From positions 4,137,872-4,192,178 of the forward strand of contig CP070751.1 in assembly GCA_020348445.1 (NCBI GenBank): a stretch of DNA of 54,307 nucleotides, read 5' to 3'. This document shows, one piece after another, positions 27,520 to 36,785 of this stretch; positions within the stretch are counted from its first letter, which is position 1, and each line of letters starts with the position of its first letter. Origin of the DNA: Thermoplasmata archaeon. GTDB taxonomy: Archaea; Thermoplasmatota; Thermoplasmata; GCA-020350865. Both the position numbers and the translations under genes were made by a program. Below the pieces are notes generated by a model, which was not told the origin of the DNA, searched no databases, and was given only the letters and a program-made list of their open reading frames with translations.

Positions 27520-28606
27520 GGCAAGGTATAAGAATGCGGTAACAGAACTGGAGGATATTGCATCCGATATCTACAAACAGATGGACAAGGGCAAGATTCC
27601 CAGCATGAAGATCCCTGTTCGCACCAAGGCCAATATCAAGTTCTCGAGAAAGAACCATGTGTGGACATTGGGTAAATCCATGGGTGCAAGAAGCGCAAAG
27701 AAACTCAACGGAGCGTACATGTTGCTTCGAACATTGCATATGATGGAGTTTATCGAGGATATGATCTCCAATTCGCGCTCTTCAACTCTAAGGGAGATGT
27801 ACTACATCTCCGAGGGCTGGGAGCAGGCCAAATTCTCCACGCAGAACGAATCCAACAAGCTTGCAGAGGATCTTGAGGCCATAACTGGCTGCATGCGGGA
27901 GGATTTCAAGCTGCGGCCCGAGGAGGATGGCGCAAGGGTCATAGGCAACATCACATTAGAGGAAGTGAATAGAAAAGGCCAGAAGAAGAAGATCAACTGC
28001 CGAGACGATGTCGGGGATTCTGGATATGGTATCCCGTACAATGTGGAGAAGGACAAGATAAAATTCAAAGATATTGGAGTAAAATTCATTATAGCAATCG
28101 AGACCGGTGGTATGTTCGATAGGCTCGTGGAAAACGGATTCGACGAGACGGCATCGGCACTTCTTCTACATCTCAAGGGCCAGCCAGCAAGAAGCACAAG
28201 ACGCTTTGTAAAGCGTCTATCAGTGGAGCACAATCTGCCTGTCGCCGTGTTCACCGATGGTGATCCATGGTCATTTCGGATCTTTGCCTCCGTTGCCTAC
28301 GGAGCCATAAATACCGCCTATATATCCGAATATCTGGCAACACCTACAACAGAATACATCGGCATTACGGCCTCGGACATCCTAAACTACGAACTTCCAA
28401 GCGACAAGCTCAACGAACAGGATATAAGGGCATTAAAAGCCGAGCTTTCTGATCCCAGGTTCAAGGGGCAGTTCTGGAAAAACGAAATCGAACTAATGTT
28501 GGATATAAAAAAGAAAGCCGAGCAGCAGGCCCTGGCCAAATACGGCCTTGACTTTGTCACAGACAAATACCTGCCAGATAAGCTGGGTGAAATGGGACTC
28601 ATGTGA
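27512..28606 (+). CDS. top6A: DNA topoisomerase VI subunit A
   Basis: [45 protein letters not shown]. Confidence 0.97.
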
Positions 28607-28626
28607 TCTTTTTTGTGGTGCGGGAC

Positions 28627-29394
28627 ATGAACTTCGTGGGAATCGACCTGTCCTGGGGAGTTACTTCTCCAAAACCCAATAGGACAGCTGCAGGGGTACT
28701 TACAGAGAATTGCGAGCTTGTGGCAAATGCCCTGCTCACAACAGATGATGATATATTAGAATTCATAAAAAATTACCTGGATGAAGGCTGCATCGTGGGT
28801 ATAGACGCACCCCTTGTTATTCCTCCCAATGTGAAACAGAGGGAATGTGAGAGGCAACTTCTCTTATGCAAAATCGCGGTTTTTCCGGGGAACAGGGCCT
28901 GGTTTGTGAGAGCTTTCGGCGGCGTGCGCGGTGAGATTCTTGTTGATAGGCTAAAGGAGTGCAATTTGCAGTTAAGGGATTTTATTGAACCTAAAAAGAG
29001 AACTTCTGCGGTTCTGGAGGTCTACCCGTACGCCTCATGGAGGGTCCTTTTCGAAGGTGATACAGTCCCAAAGTACAAGAACACCACCAGAAAGAGGAAA
29101 ATCCAGGGTTTGACGCAGTTGAGAAAAAAGCTATTTGAGATCGATTCGCCGAGGAAGTTGAGAATCCCAAAAAATCTAGATCATAAATTGGATGTGGATT
29201 TAAATTCCCTTGATAGCGGCTCGCTTGACCAGCTGGGTGACCTTCTTGACGCAACAATAGCCGCATACACCGTCTTGATGTACTGGCATTTTGGGGATGA
29301 GAAATGTGTTGTGCTCGGTGATTTGAGACGCGGCTTTATTTTAACGCTGGCTAGTGATTGCTTGAGGAAAACAGCCTTTAAAAGAAAATATTAA
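28627..29394 (+). CDS. DUF429 family predicted nuclease (RNase H-like fold)
   Basis: FVGIDLSWG, GIDAPL.IP, R.CE..L, EVYP, D.LDA. Confidence 0.8.
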   Translation: MNFVGIDLSWGVTSPKPNRTAAGVLTENCELVANALLTTDDDILEFIKNYLDEGCIVGIDAPLVIPPNVKQRECERQLLLCKIAVFPGNRAWFVRAFGGVRGEILVDRLKECNLQLRDFIEPKKRTSAVLEVYPYASWRVLFEGDTVPKYKNTTRKRKIQGLTQLRKKLFEIDSPRKLRIPKNLDHKLDVDLNSLDSGSLDQLGDLLDATIAAYTVLMYWHFGDEKCVVLGDLRRGFILTLASDCLRKTAFKRKY

Positions 29395-29400
29395 ATATAA

Positions 29401-30555
29401 TTGGTCTTATCCATGCGGTTTGAGGCCCAAATATCGGAGAATCAGAGAAATCAGTTGGTGCATAGTATGGCTGTAAAGGACAAGGGTAAGAAAAGAATGC
29501 AGGGTGTGATGCTACTTTCGGTTTTATCGTTCGCTTTGGGTTTTATATTGATCGGGGCTGGGATATTTTCTGTTGTCACAAATTCTGACTCTATAATGAG
29601 CAACATAAACCTTGTTGCTCAACAGGATGTGACTGCAGCTGCCGCAGCATCCATGATCATTTCAATAATATTTTTCTTTATAGGTCTTGGACTTTGGTTT
29701 ACCAGGGGATGGGCAAAATCGATACTGCTTATATTTGCCGGGCTGGGTCTTATTTATTTCATTTTACGGGGACTATTTATTGCCTCCTCAGTTGCCAGTT
29801 CCCGGGACGGTATCACCTCCTCGGAGACCATAGGTTCCGGCATCACGGCAATCTGTCTTGTGGCATCGATATTTATTCTGTGGTACTTTACGCGGCAAAG
29901 CGTGATCATATTGTTTGAGGCAAAGGAGATGAAGCTCACAAAAAGGAAGATCAGAGCAATAGAGGAAAAAATAGAGCTGGGAAGGCAGAGATGCAATGCA
30001 GGGGAAATTTCAAAGGCTGAGCTGTCGAAATTGAGATCAGACTGTATTGCCGAAGAAAGGCTTCTTCGAGCCAAGATCAGGCATTTCGAGAAACTGCGCC
30101 TTTCCAGGGAAAGGAAAATCAAGGAAAAAGTGGAAGGAAGAAAAAAGGCAAAGGAGGAAAAACAGGCTAAGAAGGAGAAAAAGCTGGCAGAGAAGGAGAA
30201 GAAGGCTGAAGAGAAAGTAGGGTTTGAATGCCCGGATTGCGGTGCCGACGTTAAAGAAGATGAAACCGTCTGTCCAAAATGCGGAGCAGAGTTCGAAGAG
30301 GAGGAAGAGGAAAAGCCCAAAAAGAAGAAGGCCAAAGGCGAAGAGAAGGAAGAGAAGGAAGAGGAAAAACCCAAAAAAAAGAAGCCTAAAGGTGAGGAGG
30401 AGGAAGAAGAAAGGGAAAAGAAATCCAAGAAGAAATCCAAAAAGAGGAAGGCCAAAGATGAGGAGGAGGAAGAAGAAACGGAAAAGAAATCCAAGAAGAA
30501 ATCCAAAAAGAGGAAGACCAAAGACGAGGAAGTGGAAGAAGAGGCAGAAGAGTGA
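29401..30555 (+). CDS. Four-TM membrane protein with coiled-coil, Zn ribbon and Lys/Glu-rich repeat tail
   Basis: Four hydrophobic helices; FECPDCGADVKEDETVCPKCGAEF; likely start ATG 29467 after GGTG. Confidence 0.7.
   Translation: MVLSMRFEAQISENQRNQLVHSMAVKDKGKKRMQGVMLLSVLSFALGFILIGAGIFSVVTNSDSIMSNINLVAQQDVTAAAAASMIISIIFFFIGLGLWFTRGWAKSILLIFAGLGLIYFILRGLFIASSVASSRDGITSSETIGSGITAICLVASIFILWYFTRQSVIILFEAKEMKLTKRKIRAIEEKIELGRQRCNAGEISKAELSKLRSDCIAEERLLRAKIRHFEKLRLSRERKIKEKVEGRKKAKEEKQAKKEKKLAEKEKKAEEKVGFECPDCGADVKEDETVCPKCGAEFEEEEEEKPKKKKAKGEEKEEKEEEKPKKKKPKGEEEEEEREKKSKKKSKKRKAKDEEEEEETEKKSKKKSKKRKTKDEEVEEEAEE
30415..30546 (+). repeat. Two near-identical 66-nt tandem units (EKKSKKKSKKRK.KDEE.EEE.)
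   Basis: gaaaagaaatccaagaagaaatccaaaaagaggaag at 30415 and again at 30481. Confidence 0.9.
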
Positions 30556-30646: not shown

Positions 30647-31792
30647 ATGCCTGTCGATGACATTAGAGATACGTTGCTGACAGTGGTCTTTATAGTCGGA
30701 GTTATTGTGATTACTATTATGGTTTTTAGAATAATGCTTAAGGTTCGTCGGGGTTCAAAACCTAAAAATATGAAGGAGCCCAGGGTTTTGAAGGCTGTTT
30801 CTGCCACTCCAGATATGGACGACCTGTTCAATGCAATCACTTCCTCCAGAAGAATAGCCACGGATTTAAAGAGAAGAGGAATCGATACAAGCTCGGCTGA
30901 TGACTTGATTTCAAAGGCCAGTGAAGAATACGAGATTGGAAGGGAAGCTAAGGCAAAATTGTACATAAGTGAGGCCAAAGAGCTGCTTTTAAGATCAAAG
31001 AAAGAATGGGACGAAAAGACCGGTTTTGATGTGGTTCCCATAACTTCGACCATGGGGGAGAAACCCACTCTGAAAAAAACTCTGGATGTAGCGGATGAAG
31101 CGAGCCTAAGTACCTCAGAACCTGTCAAGCCCGATGAGGTTTTCCCAGAGCTTAAGAAAGCAGAAAAGAAAAAGCCAGATAACTACCTCCCCTCGAAATT
31201 TACGATATCCTTGGCGGGTACAGCAATCGAGAATGCCCAAAGGGAGGGTGCAAACGTGGGCGAGGCCCAAAGATACCTTATAGAGGCCAAAGCCTACTTT
31301 GATCGCGAGGATTACGACGGTGCTTTTAAATCGGCCCTATGCTCCAAGAGGGAAGCCGAAGCACTTCTTGGAATGGCTCCAACTACGGGGGAGGAGAGAA
31401 AGAGGGTGATGTCGGACTTGGCCATGGACACCGAGGAACTCAAGATATGCTCAATTTGCGGCAAGAATAGAATCCCTTACATTTGCATCGAGGTCGCGGG
31501 AGGAGAAGAGGCGACATGCAAAGAATGTTATGACAGGTCCATGGGAAAGATCGCATTGGAAGAAAAAAAGCTACCACCGCCACCACCTCCACCGCCTGAA
31601 GAAAAAGAGGAGGAAAAGGGGGAAGAGCAGAACTTCTGCCCCAACTGCGGTGCAAAGGTGAAAGAAGATGATGTTTTTTGCGGGAAATGTGGCAAACCGG
31701 TACAGGAGGAGTTAAAATGCGCGGGGTGCGGGACGAAGATTGAGCCAGGAGATGTTTTCTGCAGAAAATGCGGGGCTAGGATGGTTACTTAG
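30647..31792 (+). CDS. Single-TM-anchored helical protein with Cys-rich finger, Pro-rich linker and double Zn ribbon
   Basis: N-terminal TM; two similar helical repeats (A..LI..A...Y); CSIC..C..CKEC; CPNC..CGKC..CAGC..CRKC. Confidence 0.75.
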   Translation: MPVDDIRDTLLTVVFIVGVIVITIMVFRIMLKVRRGSKPKNMKEPRVLKAVSATPDMDDLFNAITSSRRIATDLKRRGIDTSSADDLISKASEEYEIGREAKAKLYISEAKELLLRSKKEWDEKTGFDVVPITSTMGEKPTLKKTLDVADEASLSTSEPVKPDEVFPELKKAEKKKPDNYLPSKFTISLAGTAIENAQREGANVGEAQRYLIEAKAYFDREDYDGAFKSALCSKREAEALLGMAPTTGEERKRVMSDLAMDTEELKICSICGKNRIPYICIEVAGGEEATCKECYDRSMGKIALEEKKLPPPPPPPPEEKEEEKGEEQNFCPNCGAKVKEDDVFCGKCGKPVQEELKCAGCGTKIEPGDVFCRKCGARMVT

Positions 31793-31807: not shown

Positions 31808-32851
31808 CTACTTTTTCTTCAAAGTCATTCTTCTTTTAGGCCTTGTATAGACCTTCTTTGGCATGCCCGAGGTTTCATCGAATTTAGTGTTTATACGCCC
31901 CAAATGGATTTCCTGTTCCTTTATCTCGGGAGAAAGATGCTTTTCAAATTCTGAGTAATTCATGTCATTCCAGGTGAGGTAGACTATGTAGTCCGCGATC
32001 TCGTTTTTCATGGACTCTGCTGCTTGCTCCAAATCGATTTTGCCCTTTGGAACGTATATGGTGGGAGTCAGGTTCATTATGGCCTTTATGGTCAATTCGC
32101 CGCCATTTGGAGTTATCCTGAAGAAATTTCCCTTTCCCTCCGAAGAATCCCCAGTACTCTTTTCAAAGGGCAGTATGCGCAGCACATTGCCCAAAGGACC
32201 CTGCTGGATATTAACATCATCATCCAAAAGTTCCCTATCCAAATCCGAAATAAGCTTCTCCTCGATTTCTCTTATCATTTTTGCTAAATTAGGTTTTTTG
32301 TCAAAGCTTTGTTCATATTTCAGATGGACCTTGGAGTTTATCTGGCGCATATGGTCCTTGAAGTTGATTGAGTTCACAAGGTTCTCCTTGATCTTCTTGG
32401 GCTTCTTTCGTTGCATCATATAGCACTGTATGTTCTCTACATCTGTCACAATTGAAACGTAGTTCTTCATCTTGCTGGACCTGCTTTTCAGCATGGCGTC
32501 ATCAGTGCCTGAGTGAAAGAGCTCAGAAACACCATAGAGCTTACGAAACTCACCTGTTTCGAAATCCATCTTAAATGGATGCGAATGGTACAATCCAACA
32601 ATGCCCACATTCCTTGGGAACATAACGGCAAGTTTCGCCTCCTCGGCAGGATCAGATTCTGCGCTGTATCGGGACTGCCTCTTGTAATTTGTGCAGGGCA
32701 CTGCATCGCAGATGTAGACAGTATCCTCAGTAAAAAATCCAGTGAGCCAACCCAAAACCTCAAAACCATGCTCTCTGGCACCCTCCAGAGCATGCTCGGA
32801 TATAACCCGTTTTAGGTCGCGTTTCATCACCAGGTTTTTTTGCTCAGCCAT
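31808..32851 (-). CDS. JAB/MPN+ (JAMM) metallopeptidase with ODR4-like C-terminal region; candidate modifier maturase/deconjugase
   Basis: EV.GWL.G, GLYHSHP, S-x2-D (HSGTDD); last gene of the UFM-like operon. Confidence 0.8.
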   Translation of the reverse strand: MAEQKNLVMKRDLKRVISEHALEGAREHGFEVLGWLTGFFTEDTVYICDAVPCTNYKRQSRYSAESDPAEEAKLAVMFPRNVGIVGLYHSHPFKMDFETGEFRKLYGVSELFHSGTDDAMLKSRSSKMKNYVSIVTDVENIQCYMMQRKKPKKIKENLVNSINFKDHMRQINSKVHLKYEQSFDKKPNLAKMIREIEEKLISDLDRELLDDDVNIQQGPLGNVLRILPFEKSTGDSSEGKGNFFRITPNGGELTIKAIMNLTPTIYVPKGKIDLEQAAESMKNEIADYIVYLTWNDMNYSEFEKHLSPEIKEQEIHLGRINTKFDETSGMPKKVYTRPKRRMTLKKK

Positions 32852-32868
32852 GATTTATTCACTCCGCT

Positions 32869-33750
32869 TTACTTGGTCATCTCGTCGAACATCTTGGCAG
32901 CTTCCTCGATTTTTCTGAGTTTTTCATCATCCAATTTATCCTTTGCCTCACCGCAGACAGGACATTTGGGGTCCCTCTCCCAATCGTACCTCTCTATCAC
33001 ACCCCTTATGCCGTTGTACATCAGATAATTGGCAACATCCCCGAATTCGAGTAGATACTTGAAGCCTTCCTGACACTGTAGGGCCGCGATTATGGTCATC
33101 GTGGTGGGAAGGGAGGTCAGGTGGCATATTCCAGTTTGTCTGTCCTTTCCAGGCTCCTCTAGTTCGAGGTAGAGCATCGGATCCTCTTTAACAGAAACTG
33201 TTTTTTCGGACTTTTCCTTTCCCAGACCCAAGGTGTGCCTGTGGCATCTGTAGCATGCTGTTTTTCCTGGTATCACCACCTGAACAGATCCTCTTATTCC
33301 GTCTAGGCTTGCTCCACCGTCTATGAACGTCCTCTTTTGCTCGACACATTTGGCGTTCATAAAAAGGCGAACACCGAAAGTGTCCACGCAGCCAAATATC
33401 ACATCCGATTTTCCCACCTCATCCATGAACGCTTTATACCCGTCCCCGGAGGTGATATTAAAGGGATGTGCAACGATATCGATTTGCTCATTGATCTCCA
33501 AGAGGTATTCCGAGAGTGCCTCCACCTTGAACTTGCCGATCTGATTGGGTTTGTATATCATCCTGTTCATGTTGGCCATCTCGAGAGTGTCATAGTCCAT
33601 GATAACCAATCTTCCAATGCCCACCCTTACTAAAATCTCGGCCACGGTGGCGCCCAGACCTCCCACTCCCACCACTAAGGCGCTCTTTTCGCGCAACTTC
33701 GAGAAATCGGCGAATTCAAATAGAGTCAGTCGCTGATATCTTTCGTCCAT
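32869..33750 (-). CDS. uba5: UBA5-like E1 activating enzyme (ThiF/MoeB/E1 superfamily)
   Basis: VGVGGLG, DYD..E.ANMNR, NIT....FMD, CVD, PG.TACYRC, GICHLTSLPTTM, KYLLEFG.V.NYL.YN, CPVC; start ATG 33750 (or TTG 33759). Confidence 0.85.
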   Translation of the reverse strand: MDERYQRLTLFEFADFSKLREKSALVVGVGGLGATVAEILVRVGIGRLVIMDYDTLEMANMNRMIYKPNQIGKFKVEALSEYLLEINEQIDIVAHPFNITSGDGYKAFMDEVGKSDVIFGCVDTFGVRLFMNAKCVEQKRTFIDGGASLDGIRGSVQVVIPGKTACYRCHRHTLGLGKEKSEKTVSVKEDPMLYLELEEPGKDRQTGICHLTSLPTTMTIIAALQCQEGFKYLLEFGDVANYLMYNGIRGVIERYDWERDPKCPVCGEAKDKLDDEKLRKIEEAAKMFDEMTK

Positions 33751-34229
33751 TGTAACCAACCTTTTTCTTTAAGATGGAAAATAACGCTCTGAAGCCAGTA
33801 GGACACCTCCCTTTTCAGATAAAGTGCGAGACTGCAGTGCTCGTTCCACCAGTAATTCTGCTCCATGTGCATGTCGCAGATGCGAAGGCCGAGGATAGGG
33901 TCATCAAGCTTTCTATCAGTGTAGCGCATGAGCTCCGGTATCCTTGCGGCAGGGGGAGTGTGCGGGTACGAATCAGTGAACACCAGTTCTATTAGGTAGT
34001 TTCTGCCCTCGGCTGTCAGGGTGCCCTCCCATCTTGTGGCATCATCGCCGATGGGTCTGATAGAGAACCACCTTTCCTCCTCCTGGTTCTTCTCCATGTA
34101 ATCAACGTACTGCATGTACTTCAAAAGAGCGTACTTCTCCTCTTTGACCCTAAGTGGCCACATCTCATTCCCGGGAGAAGCCACGGTTGAACATTGTAAG
34201 AAATAGAATAAATCAGGTTCTTGTTTCAC
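33726..34229 (-). CDS. ufc1: UFC1-like E2 conjugating enzyme
   Basis: W..R.KEE..AL..Y, WF, TRW.G, YP.T.P, PEL..T, RIC (catalytic Cys 33876-33878), W...C.LA, WL....L..KG.LQ. Confidence 0.82.
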   Translation of the reverse strand: MKQEPDLFYFLQCSTVASPGNEMWPLRVKEEKYALLKYMQYVDYMEKNQEEERWFSIRPIGDDATRWEGTLTAEGRNYLIELVFTDSYPHTPPAARIPELMRYTDRKLDDPILGLRICDMHMEQNYWWNEHCSLALYLKREVSYWLQSVIFHLKEKGWLQWTKDISD

Positions 34230-34324
34230 GACATCACTTTTTTTATTTGACTAATTCAATATGACGATTACAAGAGCAATTAAATGTATGAAAGTCCTCT
34301 ACTAATTCTTTGTTTTCGATGGAA

Positions 34325-34585
34325 CTAGGTGCCCACAACAGATGGGTCTATGACATGGATATTCGTGCCCTGCTCGATGACTTTTTCAACGGTCCCGCCG
34401 GTAATCGGCGTTCCTGCAGGATATGTGGCACTGAGAATGCTGGGATCCTTGCCCTGTTTTTTTGCAGCCAAAACCAGTGCCTCCTGAAACAGCATCTCCT
34501 TTGGAACCTGGACCGTTACAACGGGCTTCTCCGGCTCTGAAATGAACGTGAAACGAAGTGCAACCTTATTGTCCATTCTAACCAT
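34325..34585 (-). CDS. ufm1: UFM1-like beta-grasp modifier with C-terminal VG-T
   Basis: KV..T..SEP..P...VP....F...L..AA...G..I..T...V...G....I....VG-T; colinear with UFM1 and gap-free over the first ~56 positions; GGAGTGA RBS. Confidence 0.8.
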   Translation of the reverse strand: MVRMDNKVALRFTFISEPEKPVVTVQVPKEMLFQEALVLAAKKQGKDPSILSATYPAGTPITGGTVEKVIEQGTNIHVIDPSVVGT

Positions 34586-34623
34586 AATCTCACTCCCTGA
34601 TTGTTAGAATGATTGCGTTGAGG

Positions 34624-34633
34624 TTATATATTT
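34624..34633 (-). promoter_or_regulatory. Candidate archaeal TATA box for the UFM-like operon
   Basis: AAATATATAA on the minus strand about 40 nt upstream of ATG 34585; only strong TATA-like run in that interval. Confidence 0.4.
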
Positions 34634-36329: not shown

Positions 36330-36785
36330 TTAACCGCCGCGCGGGACAATATGGGCCGAGTACTGACCGCCACCACCCATTGGCGTTACAAGTACAAGGT
36401 ATTGTCCCCCTCCTCCTTCAGGAAGTATATGGGCCATGTATCTACCGCTTCTGCCAAGAGGTTTAACCATAGTCCTGTATTGTCCTGCGCCGAGCTCGAA
36501 GATGTACTGTCCTCCTCCTCCAAGATCGAATACATATTGGCTACCACCTCCTAAGATGAAGCGGTATTGCCCACCACCACCTAATCTGATCATGTAATGC
36601 CCTCCACCGCCGAGGTTGAATACGTATTGCCCTCCTCCGCCAAGGTCGAACTCGTACCGACCAGATTCATCCAAGTCAATGACGTTCTCGCTGCTGGTGT
36701 CTGCAGTTGCTAGTCCTGGTAACAGACCCACAAAAAGAACAGCGAGTACGCCGATACAGATTACTTTGGTTCTTTTCATAAGCAC
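36330..36785 (-). CDS. Secreted protein made of about 10 GGGGQY-x-(hydrophobic)-x-L repeats; family not recognised
   Basis: Signal peptide (..LPGLATA); GGAG RBS; repeat array to the C-terminus. Confidence 0.7.
   Translation of the reverse strand: MLMKRTKVICIGVLAVLFVGLLPGLATADTSSENVIDLDESGRYEFDLGGGGQYVFNLGGGGHYMIRLGGGGQYRFILGGGSQYVFDLGGGGQYIFELGAGQYRTMVKPLGRSGRYMAHILPEGGGGQYLVLVTPMGGGGQYSAHIVPRGG
36333..36662 (-). repeat. Degenerate 30-nt (10-aa) tandem repeat, lengthening to 12-13 aa at the 3' end
   Basis: GGGGQYVFNL, GGGGHYMIRL, GGGGQYRFIL, GGGSQYVFDL, GGGGQYIFEL; synonymous codons differ between units. Confidence 0.85.

Follow-up and report, generated by a model that had tools for sequence, protein, structure and literature searches.

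A UFM1-type operon in a Thermoplasmata archaeon

The four genes at positions 31,808–34,585 of the DNA analysed here most likely form a conserved operon of the UFM1 type, predicted to activate, conjugate and deconjugate a small protein modifier, and homologous to, but simpler than, the core of eukaryotic UFMylation. The DNA, hereafter the window, is a stretch of 54,307 nucleotides from a Thermoplasmata archaeon (contig CP070751.1 of assembly GCA_020348445.1, positions 4,137,872 to 4,192,178), and coordinates are given in its own numbering. Read along the minus strand, the genes encode a UFM1-like ubiquitin-like modifier (Ubl), an E2 conjugating enzyme of the UFC1 family, a UBA5-like E1 activating enzyme, and a JAB/JAMM peptidase, and the three eukaryotic proteins UFM1, UFC1 and UBA5 are all homologous to their archaeal counterparts. 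Because the identical four genes recur in the identical order across 31 species, the arrangement is not a matter of chance, and on the evidence set out below the operon probably encodes a working UFM1-type conjugation system.

The E2, E1 and modifier

The E2 (33726–34229, minus strand) is encoded by an open reading frame (ORF) of 167 amino acids with a GTG start. With the Pfam UFC1 model (PF08694; cut-off 25) it scores 39.7 bits over model positions 11–153 of 155, while the canonical UQ_con model stays sub-threshold, and its 26 best matches among the Protein Data Bank (PDB) sequences are all UFC1. An N-terminal DLFYFLQC segment is conserved across orthologues, and the long GTG-start form is therefore real. 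Towards the other end, W145 aligns with a Trp conserved in eukaryote-type UFC1 sequences; we take this residue to be the equivalent of W145 of UFC1, which was among the mutated positions in PMC12032130. Cys118 is near-invariant among orthologues and aligns with the active cysteine of UFC1, found there in a KIC motif and numbered C116 (PMC12032130). Also in common with UFC1 are the lack of an HPN motif and a Thr-x-basic sequence where UFC1 has its TAK motif (as defined in PMC12032130); the residues concerned, T104-D105-R106-K107, are at least 90% conserved, although four extra residues before the cysteine make the register of the Asp and Arg uncertain.

The E1 (32869–33759, minus strand) has an ORF of 296 amino acids from a TTG codon, but alignment of the orthologues favours the ATG at 33750 as the probable start, giving a protein of 293 amino acids. 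Searched against all PDB sequences, its best matches are five human UBA5 constructs (7e-47 to 1.5e-45, about 160 bits, the top one 163), followed by MoeB (3e-22, 82 bits) and UBA1 (3e-20, 76 bits), a lead of UBA5 over MoeB of about 80 bits. Pfam ThiF matches at 162 bits, the Pfam scan finds no rhodanese domain, and the best NCBIfam models (MoeB, ThiF and SAMP E1) are all far under their cut-offs (92 vs 450). Invariant across 30 orthologues are the GxGGxG nucleotide loop, the zinc cysteines C169, C172, C266 and C269, and S216-L-P-T-T220, with Cys212 of the C-x3-SLPTT motif conserved in 97%. This cysteine aligns with the one in the UBA5 segment GVCAASLPTTMG, which we presume to be the catalytic Cys250 of UBA5. 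The E1 thus has in common with UBA5, its closest solved relative, a four-Cys zinc site and a predicted catalytic cysteine that lies within the adenylation domain, before SLPTT. Four further ThiF paralogues in the same genome serve as an internal control; the nearest of these finds UBA1, SAE2, UBA3 and UBA7 (about 1e-30), UBA5 being absent from its listed matches, and the affinity for UBA5 is therefore specific to the operon E1.

No counterpart of the long C-terminal region of UBA5, with recognisable UFM1- and UFC1-binding sequences, is seen in the archaeal E1. The window E1 ends instead in a short amphipathic helix of about 25 amino acids (...IEEAAKMFDEMTK), which occurs in the order of the window's genome, in one second lineage and in an Asgard E1. 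Searches with this tail against PDB sequences returned just spurious matches (designed PPR repeats and rubredoxins) and no similarity to the UBA5 tail. We note that one Thermoplasmatota E1 (L011:6546-7673, plus strand) has an acidic linker of about 90 residues before the same short terminal helix (…DRAARIFDEIS…), a layout reminiscent of eukaryotic UBA5, in which a linker joins the adenylation domain to a C-terminal peptide.

The modifier (34325–34585, minus strand; an ORF of 86 amino acids) is strongly conserved in its family, with a mean column identity of 67%. Its sole Pfam match is Ufm1; a whole-genome scan with the same model did not pick it out. Against PDB sequences, whether searched as a single sequence or as a 30-sequence profile, it finds only UFM1, with E values between 0.05 and 1. 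An AlphaFold (AF2) model of the protein is a beta-grasp fold (pLDDT 86), and in a Foldseek search with this model ranks 1–14 are all UFM1 (TM 0.77–0.87, a root mean square deviation of 1.2–1.6 Å for most, and 20–24% identity), with SUMO and ubiquitin next at a TM of about 0.65 and no MoaD, ThiS or SAMP protein among the matches listed. The protein ends in ...DPSVVG-T, with Gly85 invariant in 30 sequences and preceded by Val. The majority of orthologues finish exactly at VG, and members of the window's genus add T (as here), SC, FR, FQ or SR; the single Gly after Val, masked by zero to two residues, is in common with UFM1, and one congener ends VGSC. Such an invariant Val-Gly end with short masking marks the protein as a UFM1-type Ubl that can be conjugated.

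These results bear on a first-pass annotation of this DNA, made from the sequence alone, which had placed the modifier, E2 and E1 each in the UFM branch. For the E2 and E1 this assignment stands, by the Pfam and PDB matches of the former and by the margin of UBA5 over MoeB and the paralogue control of the latter. The modifier agrees with it in fold, where UFM1 ranks first, and in its Val-Gly end, but falls short of the Pfam Ufm1 threshold. The best profile matches were not the MoaD, ThiS, SAMP and canonical UBC families, UFC1 being top for the E2 and Ufm1 alone for the Ubl. The protein types named there were likewise recovered, as a beta-grasp model for the modifier, Cys118 in the E2, a ThiF-type E1 and an MPN+ peptidase.

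A peptidase with a probable ODR4-like domain plan

The peptidase (31808–32851, minus strand; an ORF of 347 amino acids) has two domains. The JAMM/MPN+ domain (residues 1–160; 32372–32851, minus strand) has the MPN fold and the E...HxH...S-x-x-D motif, in which E31, H89-x-H91, S114 and D117 are invariant in the family and a variable 20-residue insert separates HxH from SxxD; its only NCBIfam match is the desampylase model, at 31.8 bits against a cut-off of 130. The C-terminal domain (residues 161–347; 31808–32371, minus strand) is of alpha/beta type with a basic tail, and resembles the N-terminal 'new' domain of UfSP2/ODR8. ODR4/C1orf27 consists of an MPN domain and, behind it, a counterpart of the UFSP2/ODR8 N-terminal 'new' domain (PMC13137144), and the MPN fold of ODR4 is without catalytic residues (PMC10952357). 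An MPN+ domain with a UfSP2-like second domain would therefore represent the ODR4 plan with an intact predicted active site.

The first-pass annotation had matched this protein to ODR4, which finds support in the two-domain architecture and none in the sequence. When the 21 peptidase members were scanned against Pfam at E values up to 10, only JAB families and scattered noise were found, and no ODR4-like family (PF14778). The C-terminal domain gave no usable match in the ESM Atlas, and a profile of this domain had no matches among PDB sequences. A search of the genome for ODR4-like proteins (PF14778) also found none, as did the same search of control genomes, so this search alone does not show absence. 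The archaeal peptidase thus appears to share its two-domain plan with ODR4/C1orf27 and with the N-terminal half of the Caenorhabditis elegans UfSP (ODR8), with no similarity at the sequence level and no membrane anchor seen; it differs from ODR4, a pseudoenzyme (PMC10952357), in its intact MPN site, and from ODR8/UfSP2 in having no C78 cysteine-protease domain; it ends after the second domain.

A predicted conjugation cascade

From the homology, the catalytic residues, the conservation of the operon and its distribution, all of which are observed directly, we infer the biochemical steps and the targets of a cascade as follows. The modifier would be made with one extra residue, Thr86, beyond the invariant C-terminal Val-Gly, and the JAMM peptidase would trim it; most other lineages make a modifier that has VG as its end from the start. 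The zinc-containing, UBA5-like E1 of the ThiF type would adenylate Gly85 and take the modifier onto Cys212 as a thioester, then hand it to Cys118 of the UFC1-like E2, which may pass it to lysines of target proteins either directly or via an unrecognised partner. Removal of the modifier would again be the task of the JAMM peptidase, where eukaryotes use the unrelated cysteine proteases UfSP1/2.

Several points weigh against such a system. Every biochemical step is deduced from comparison of sequences and structures; the Ubl lies below the Pfam Ufm1 (PF03671) cut-off (12.4 vs 27 bits, E 0.16); and most Thermoplasmata E1s stop right after the CxxC motif, with no tail for a UFM1- or UFC1-binding role. 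To our knowledge, all characterised prokaryotic operons with E1, E2, JAB and Ubl genes (Bil, Bub and CBASS Cap2/Cap3) act in phage defence, not housekeeping. Moreover, human UFC1 requires the UFL1-DDRGK1 E3 for substrate transfer (PMC12032130), and no E3 of the UFL1/DDRGK1 type was found, which leaves the discharge of the E2 to its targets unexplained. The genome of the window is a single 5.16-Mb contig scored as 82% complete, of the same genus as CP070739.1; within it UFL1 has no match, DDRGK gives only sub-threshold winged-helix noise of a kind also present in control genomes, and Peptidase_C78 (PF07910, the UfSP family) has no match, the controls likewise having none.

Distribution in Thermoplasmata

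With a profile built from its own family, the E2 is found in 6 of 6 genomes of the window's order and in 31 of 401 genomes of the class, always as a single match. Some families have it throughout (4/4, 7/7, 6/6, 3/3 and 2/2), and large ones lack it altogether (0/40 or more), a pattern of presence and absence that looks vertical and not island-like. A scan of a 400-genome sample of the phylum with Pfam UFC1 found the window's genome only, the sample having missed the positive families. The gene order Ubl-E2-E1-JAB is kept in all 31 species loci wherever the contig allows, and the E2s have diverged deeply from one another (55–90% identity). The named relatives of the E2 and Ubl all belong to metagenome-assembled genomes (MAGs) of Thermoplasmata, Methanomassiliicoccales, Methanobacteriota or Thermoplasmatota.

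About 2 Mb away in the same genome there is a second eukaryote-like Ubl cluster (G000:C1:2150000-2155500; locus L044:6519-11414). It encodes a 428-aa JAB/MPN protein, an 83-aa protein over the Pfam 'ubiquitin' cut-off, a 322-aa ThiF E1, a 151-aa protein without an assignment, and a second ThiF protein of 260 aa with best PDB matches to UBA1, SAE2 and UBA3. This Thermoplasmata genome thus seems to carry a ubiquitin-type system besides the UFM1-type one.

Relatives in Asgard archaea and eukaryotes

Searched against 1.84 billion representative proteins, the E2 profile has 58 matches only, and these fall into three groups: the Thermoplasmata clusters, about a dozen 'Asgard-like' proteins, and eukaryote-type UFC1. 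Named members of the Asgard-like group are from Promethearchaeota, Heimdallarchaeota, Sigynarchaeota, Lokiarchaeota and one Korarchaeota MAG. One Promethearchaeota contig encodes a complete set in the order E1-JAB-Ubl-E2, differing from the Ubl-E2-E1-JAB of the Thermoplasmata. Its E1 is 33% identical to the window E1 (4e-53), C-terminal helix included; its JAB has both domains of the window peptidase (hhalign 99.9%, 260 columns); its Ubl can be aligned over the full length of the Thermoplasmata family (hhalign E 4e-5), the Gly of the terminal VG/AG being in register; and its E2 is homologous to the Thermoplasmata E2. The Asgard E2s are unlike those of Thermoplasmata in having an insert before the catalytic Cys and in being often fused to the Ubl, which in several of them (P0153, P0154, P0162, P0163, P0176 and P0177) occupies the N-terminus with the VG/AG junction intact. 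The preserved junction implies that the Ubl is freed by proteolysis or else that such an E2 bears a tag of its own. We also note an 866-aa protein of Candidatus Lokiarchaeota (P0191) that joins a UFC1-like E2 to a SIR2 domain and a TPR region, in a layout that recalls defence genes.

In an unrooted tree the E2s form three clean clades in a star, with 96–99% support and a long-branch warning; the Thermoplasmata clade (96/92) stands apart from the Asgard-like and eukaryotic ones and has the shortest stem. Scored with the eukaryotic UFC1 profile, the Thermoplasmata E2s have a median of 52 bits and the Asgard-like E2s one of 30. The Thermoplasmata E2 thus lies closer to eukaryotic UFC1 than its Asgard counterpart does, and a tentative reading of this is that the eukaryotic core is not a simple vertical inheritance from Asgard archaea, or that the Thermoplasmata best preserve the ancestral state. 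The tree has no outgroup to root it.

Alternative explanations

It is improbable that the operon serves antiviral defence in the manner of Bil, Bub or CBASS Cap2/Cap3, with the Ubl attached upon infection to a host effector or to proteins of the phage or virus. PADLOC E1-E2 models match the E1 generically (up to 71 bits), a PADLOC JAB model matches the JAB weakly (E 0.004), PDB matches include Cap2, Cap3 and BubCD, though far below UBA5, and the fusion of a lokiarchaeal E2 relative to SIR2 and TPR is typical of defence genes. However, none of the PADLOC models for Bil, Bub and CBASS Cap2/Cap3 is matched in all components, the matches of the E1 being to the ThiF domain only, and there is no significant PADLOC family for the E2 (E 0.009) and none for the Ubl. 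Several whole families have the operon in each genome sampled, once per genome, and the others lack it, which is a vertical and not a patchy distribution; the Ubl is very strongly conserved; and the neighbouring genes are of the housekeeping type (see below).

The restricted distribution in the class, the presence of the same gene set in Asgard archaea and the lack of a root in the E2 tree would suit the view that Thermoplasmata gained the operon recently, by horizontal transfer from an Asgard archaeon or a eukaryote, and that it has no settled role there. This is very unlikely, given that the Thermoplasmata E2s are a supported clade of their own with deep divergence, that gene order is strict across families, and that the catalytic residues are all kept; an ancient transfer, with vertical inheritance for a long time since, would be compatible with a working conjugation system. 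We also regard as very improbable a Ubl that is mainly a sulfur carrier similar to SAMP, Urm1, MoaD or ThiS, activated in the manner of MoeB or ThiF and with conjugation secondary or absent. A sulfur carrier has no need of an E2 with a conserved Cys or of a dedicated JAMM peptidase, yet both are invariably co-encoded; the Ubl ends in VG and not GG, and its fold is closest to UFM1; and the E1 has no rhodanese domain and matches UBA5 far above MoeB. In favour of this role, archaeal SAMPs and Urm1 perform both sulfur transfer and conjugation, and the best NCBIfam models of the E1, under cut-off as they are, belong to sulfur-carrier and SAMP activation. A UFM1-type conjugation system thus remains the preferred interpretation.

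Operon layout and neighbouring genes

The four genes are co-oriented, with a 25-nt overlap of E2 and E1 and a 17-nt gap between E1 and JAB, as the first-pass annotation had described from the ORFs; the overlap holds for the ATG start of the E1 and is 34 nt with the TTG. The Ubl and E2 genes are separated by 95 nt. A TATA-like box read from the sequence, AAATATATAA (34624–34633, minus strand), lies about 44 nt upstream of the Ubl ATG and is the operon's candidate promoter, of archaeal type; 5 nt before the same ATG comes a GGGAGTG ribosome-binding site (34591–34597, minus strand), also read from the sequence. Rfam and tRNA scans of the window had no matches.

The surroundings of the operon are of the housekeeping type, with THUMP methyltransferase, V4R, DUF429 and zinc-ribbon proteins. 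Convergent with the peptidase gene is a gene (30647–31792, plus strand) for a protein with a 4-Cys module and a double zinc ribbon, which in the window's order is 381 aa long and has a transmembrane helix at its N-terminus as well as an extended helical region. A zinc-ribbon gene directly follows JAB in at least 18 loci of several families, mostly as a protein of 127–147 aa (e.g. L013, L015, L016, L021, L027, L029 and L031), and could be a candidate partner or substrate of the UFM1-type system. In 9 loci the zinc-ribbon gene is followed by one for a small conserved protein with the motifs DNVI…PEDRKLFY…GR-WRIFYWE (e.g. L014:9020-9373, L015:8862-9347, L027:3985-4359 and, on the plus strand, L029:8618-9319). 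In the window the gene adjoining the zinc-ribbon neighbour (29401–30555, plus strand) encodes a zinc-ribbon membrane protein whose very long, low-complexity tail is rich in Lys and Glu, with a DUF429 gene (28603–29394) beside it. Further along, a 151-aa protein (36330–36785, minus strand) has a signal-peptide-like start, consists almost wholly of GGGGQY-x-hydrophobic repeats and belongs to no Pfam family.

Comparison with known systems and implications

The archaeal system differs from eukaryotic UFMylation in that its genes form an operon, its protease is a metalloenzyme, its Ubl stays under the Pfam Ufm1 cut-off, and no UFL1, DDRGK1, CDK5RAP3 or UfSP is detectable in the window's genome. It is also distinct from the two archaeal systems with which it might be compared. 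The operon of Caldiarchaeum subterraneum, which encodes ubiquitin, E1, E2, RING and Rpn11 proteins, is of the ubiquitin/UBA1-like/UBC type with a RING E3, whereas the Thermoplasmata operon is of the UFM1/UBA5/UFC1 type with no recognised E3. Sampylation (SAMP, UbaA and JAMM1) likewise has a ThiF-type E1 and a JAMM desampylase besides its Ubl, but it has no E2, and SAMPs have a GG end and also serve as sulfur carriers.

UFM1 and UFC1 were described as exclusively eukaryotic, and UBA5 as derived from bacteria, in a 2023 survey (PMC10183829). More recently Ufm1 was reported in eukaryotes and Asgard archaea and 'not in any other prokaryote' (Koestlbacher et al. 2026, PMC12962969), in a paper that mentions neither UFC1 nor UBA5. 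In the open-access literature we found no other report of UFC1 in Asgard archaea, of Ufm1 in Thermoplasmata or of 'UFC1-like' proteins, and an earlier report elsewhere is possible. The core of a pathway published as restricted to eukaryotes, with the tag alone also in Asgard archaea, is thus present in minimal form in a non-Asgard archaeon.

A more far-reaching interpretation, which we offer tentatively and consider somewhat doubtful, is that the entire UFMylation toolkit, deconjugation included, has its prokaryotic root in this operon, with the archaeal peptidase a still-catalytic form of what later became ODR4 and the N-terminal domain of UfSP2. If so, eukaryotes would later have swapped the chemistry of the peptidase for that of a C78 cysteine protease, and the operon would offer a concrete origin for the puzzling ODR4 pseudoenzyme. 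As four small soluble proteins, the system may also provide an in vitro route to the action of a UFC1-type E2 without UFL1. UFMylation is an essential, disease-linked pathway of eukaryotes whose origin and primordial function are open questions, and the occurrence of a complete set of tag, E1 and E2 with its own protease, universal in several families of Thermoplasmata and also present in Asgard archaea, suggests that the core cascade arose before, or outside, eukaryogenesis.

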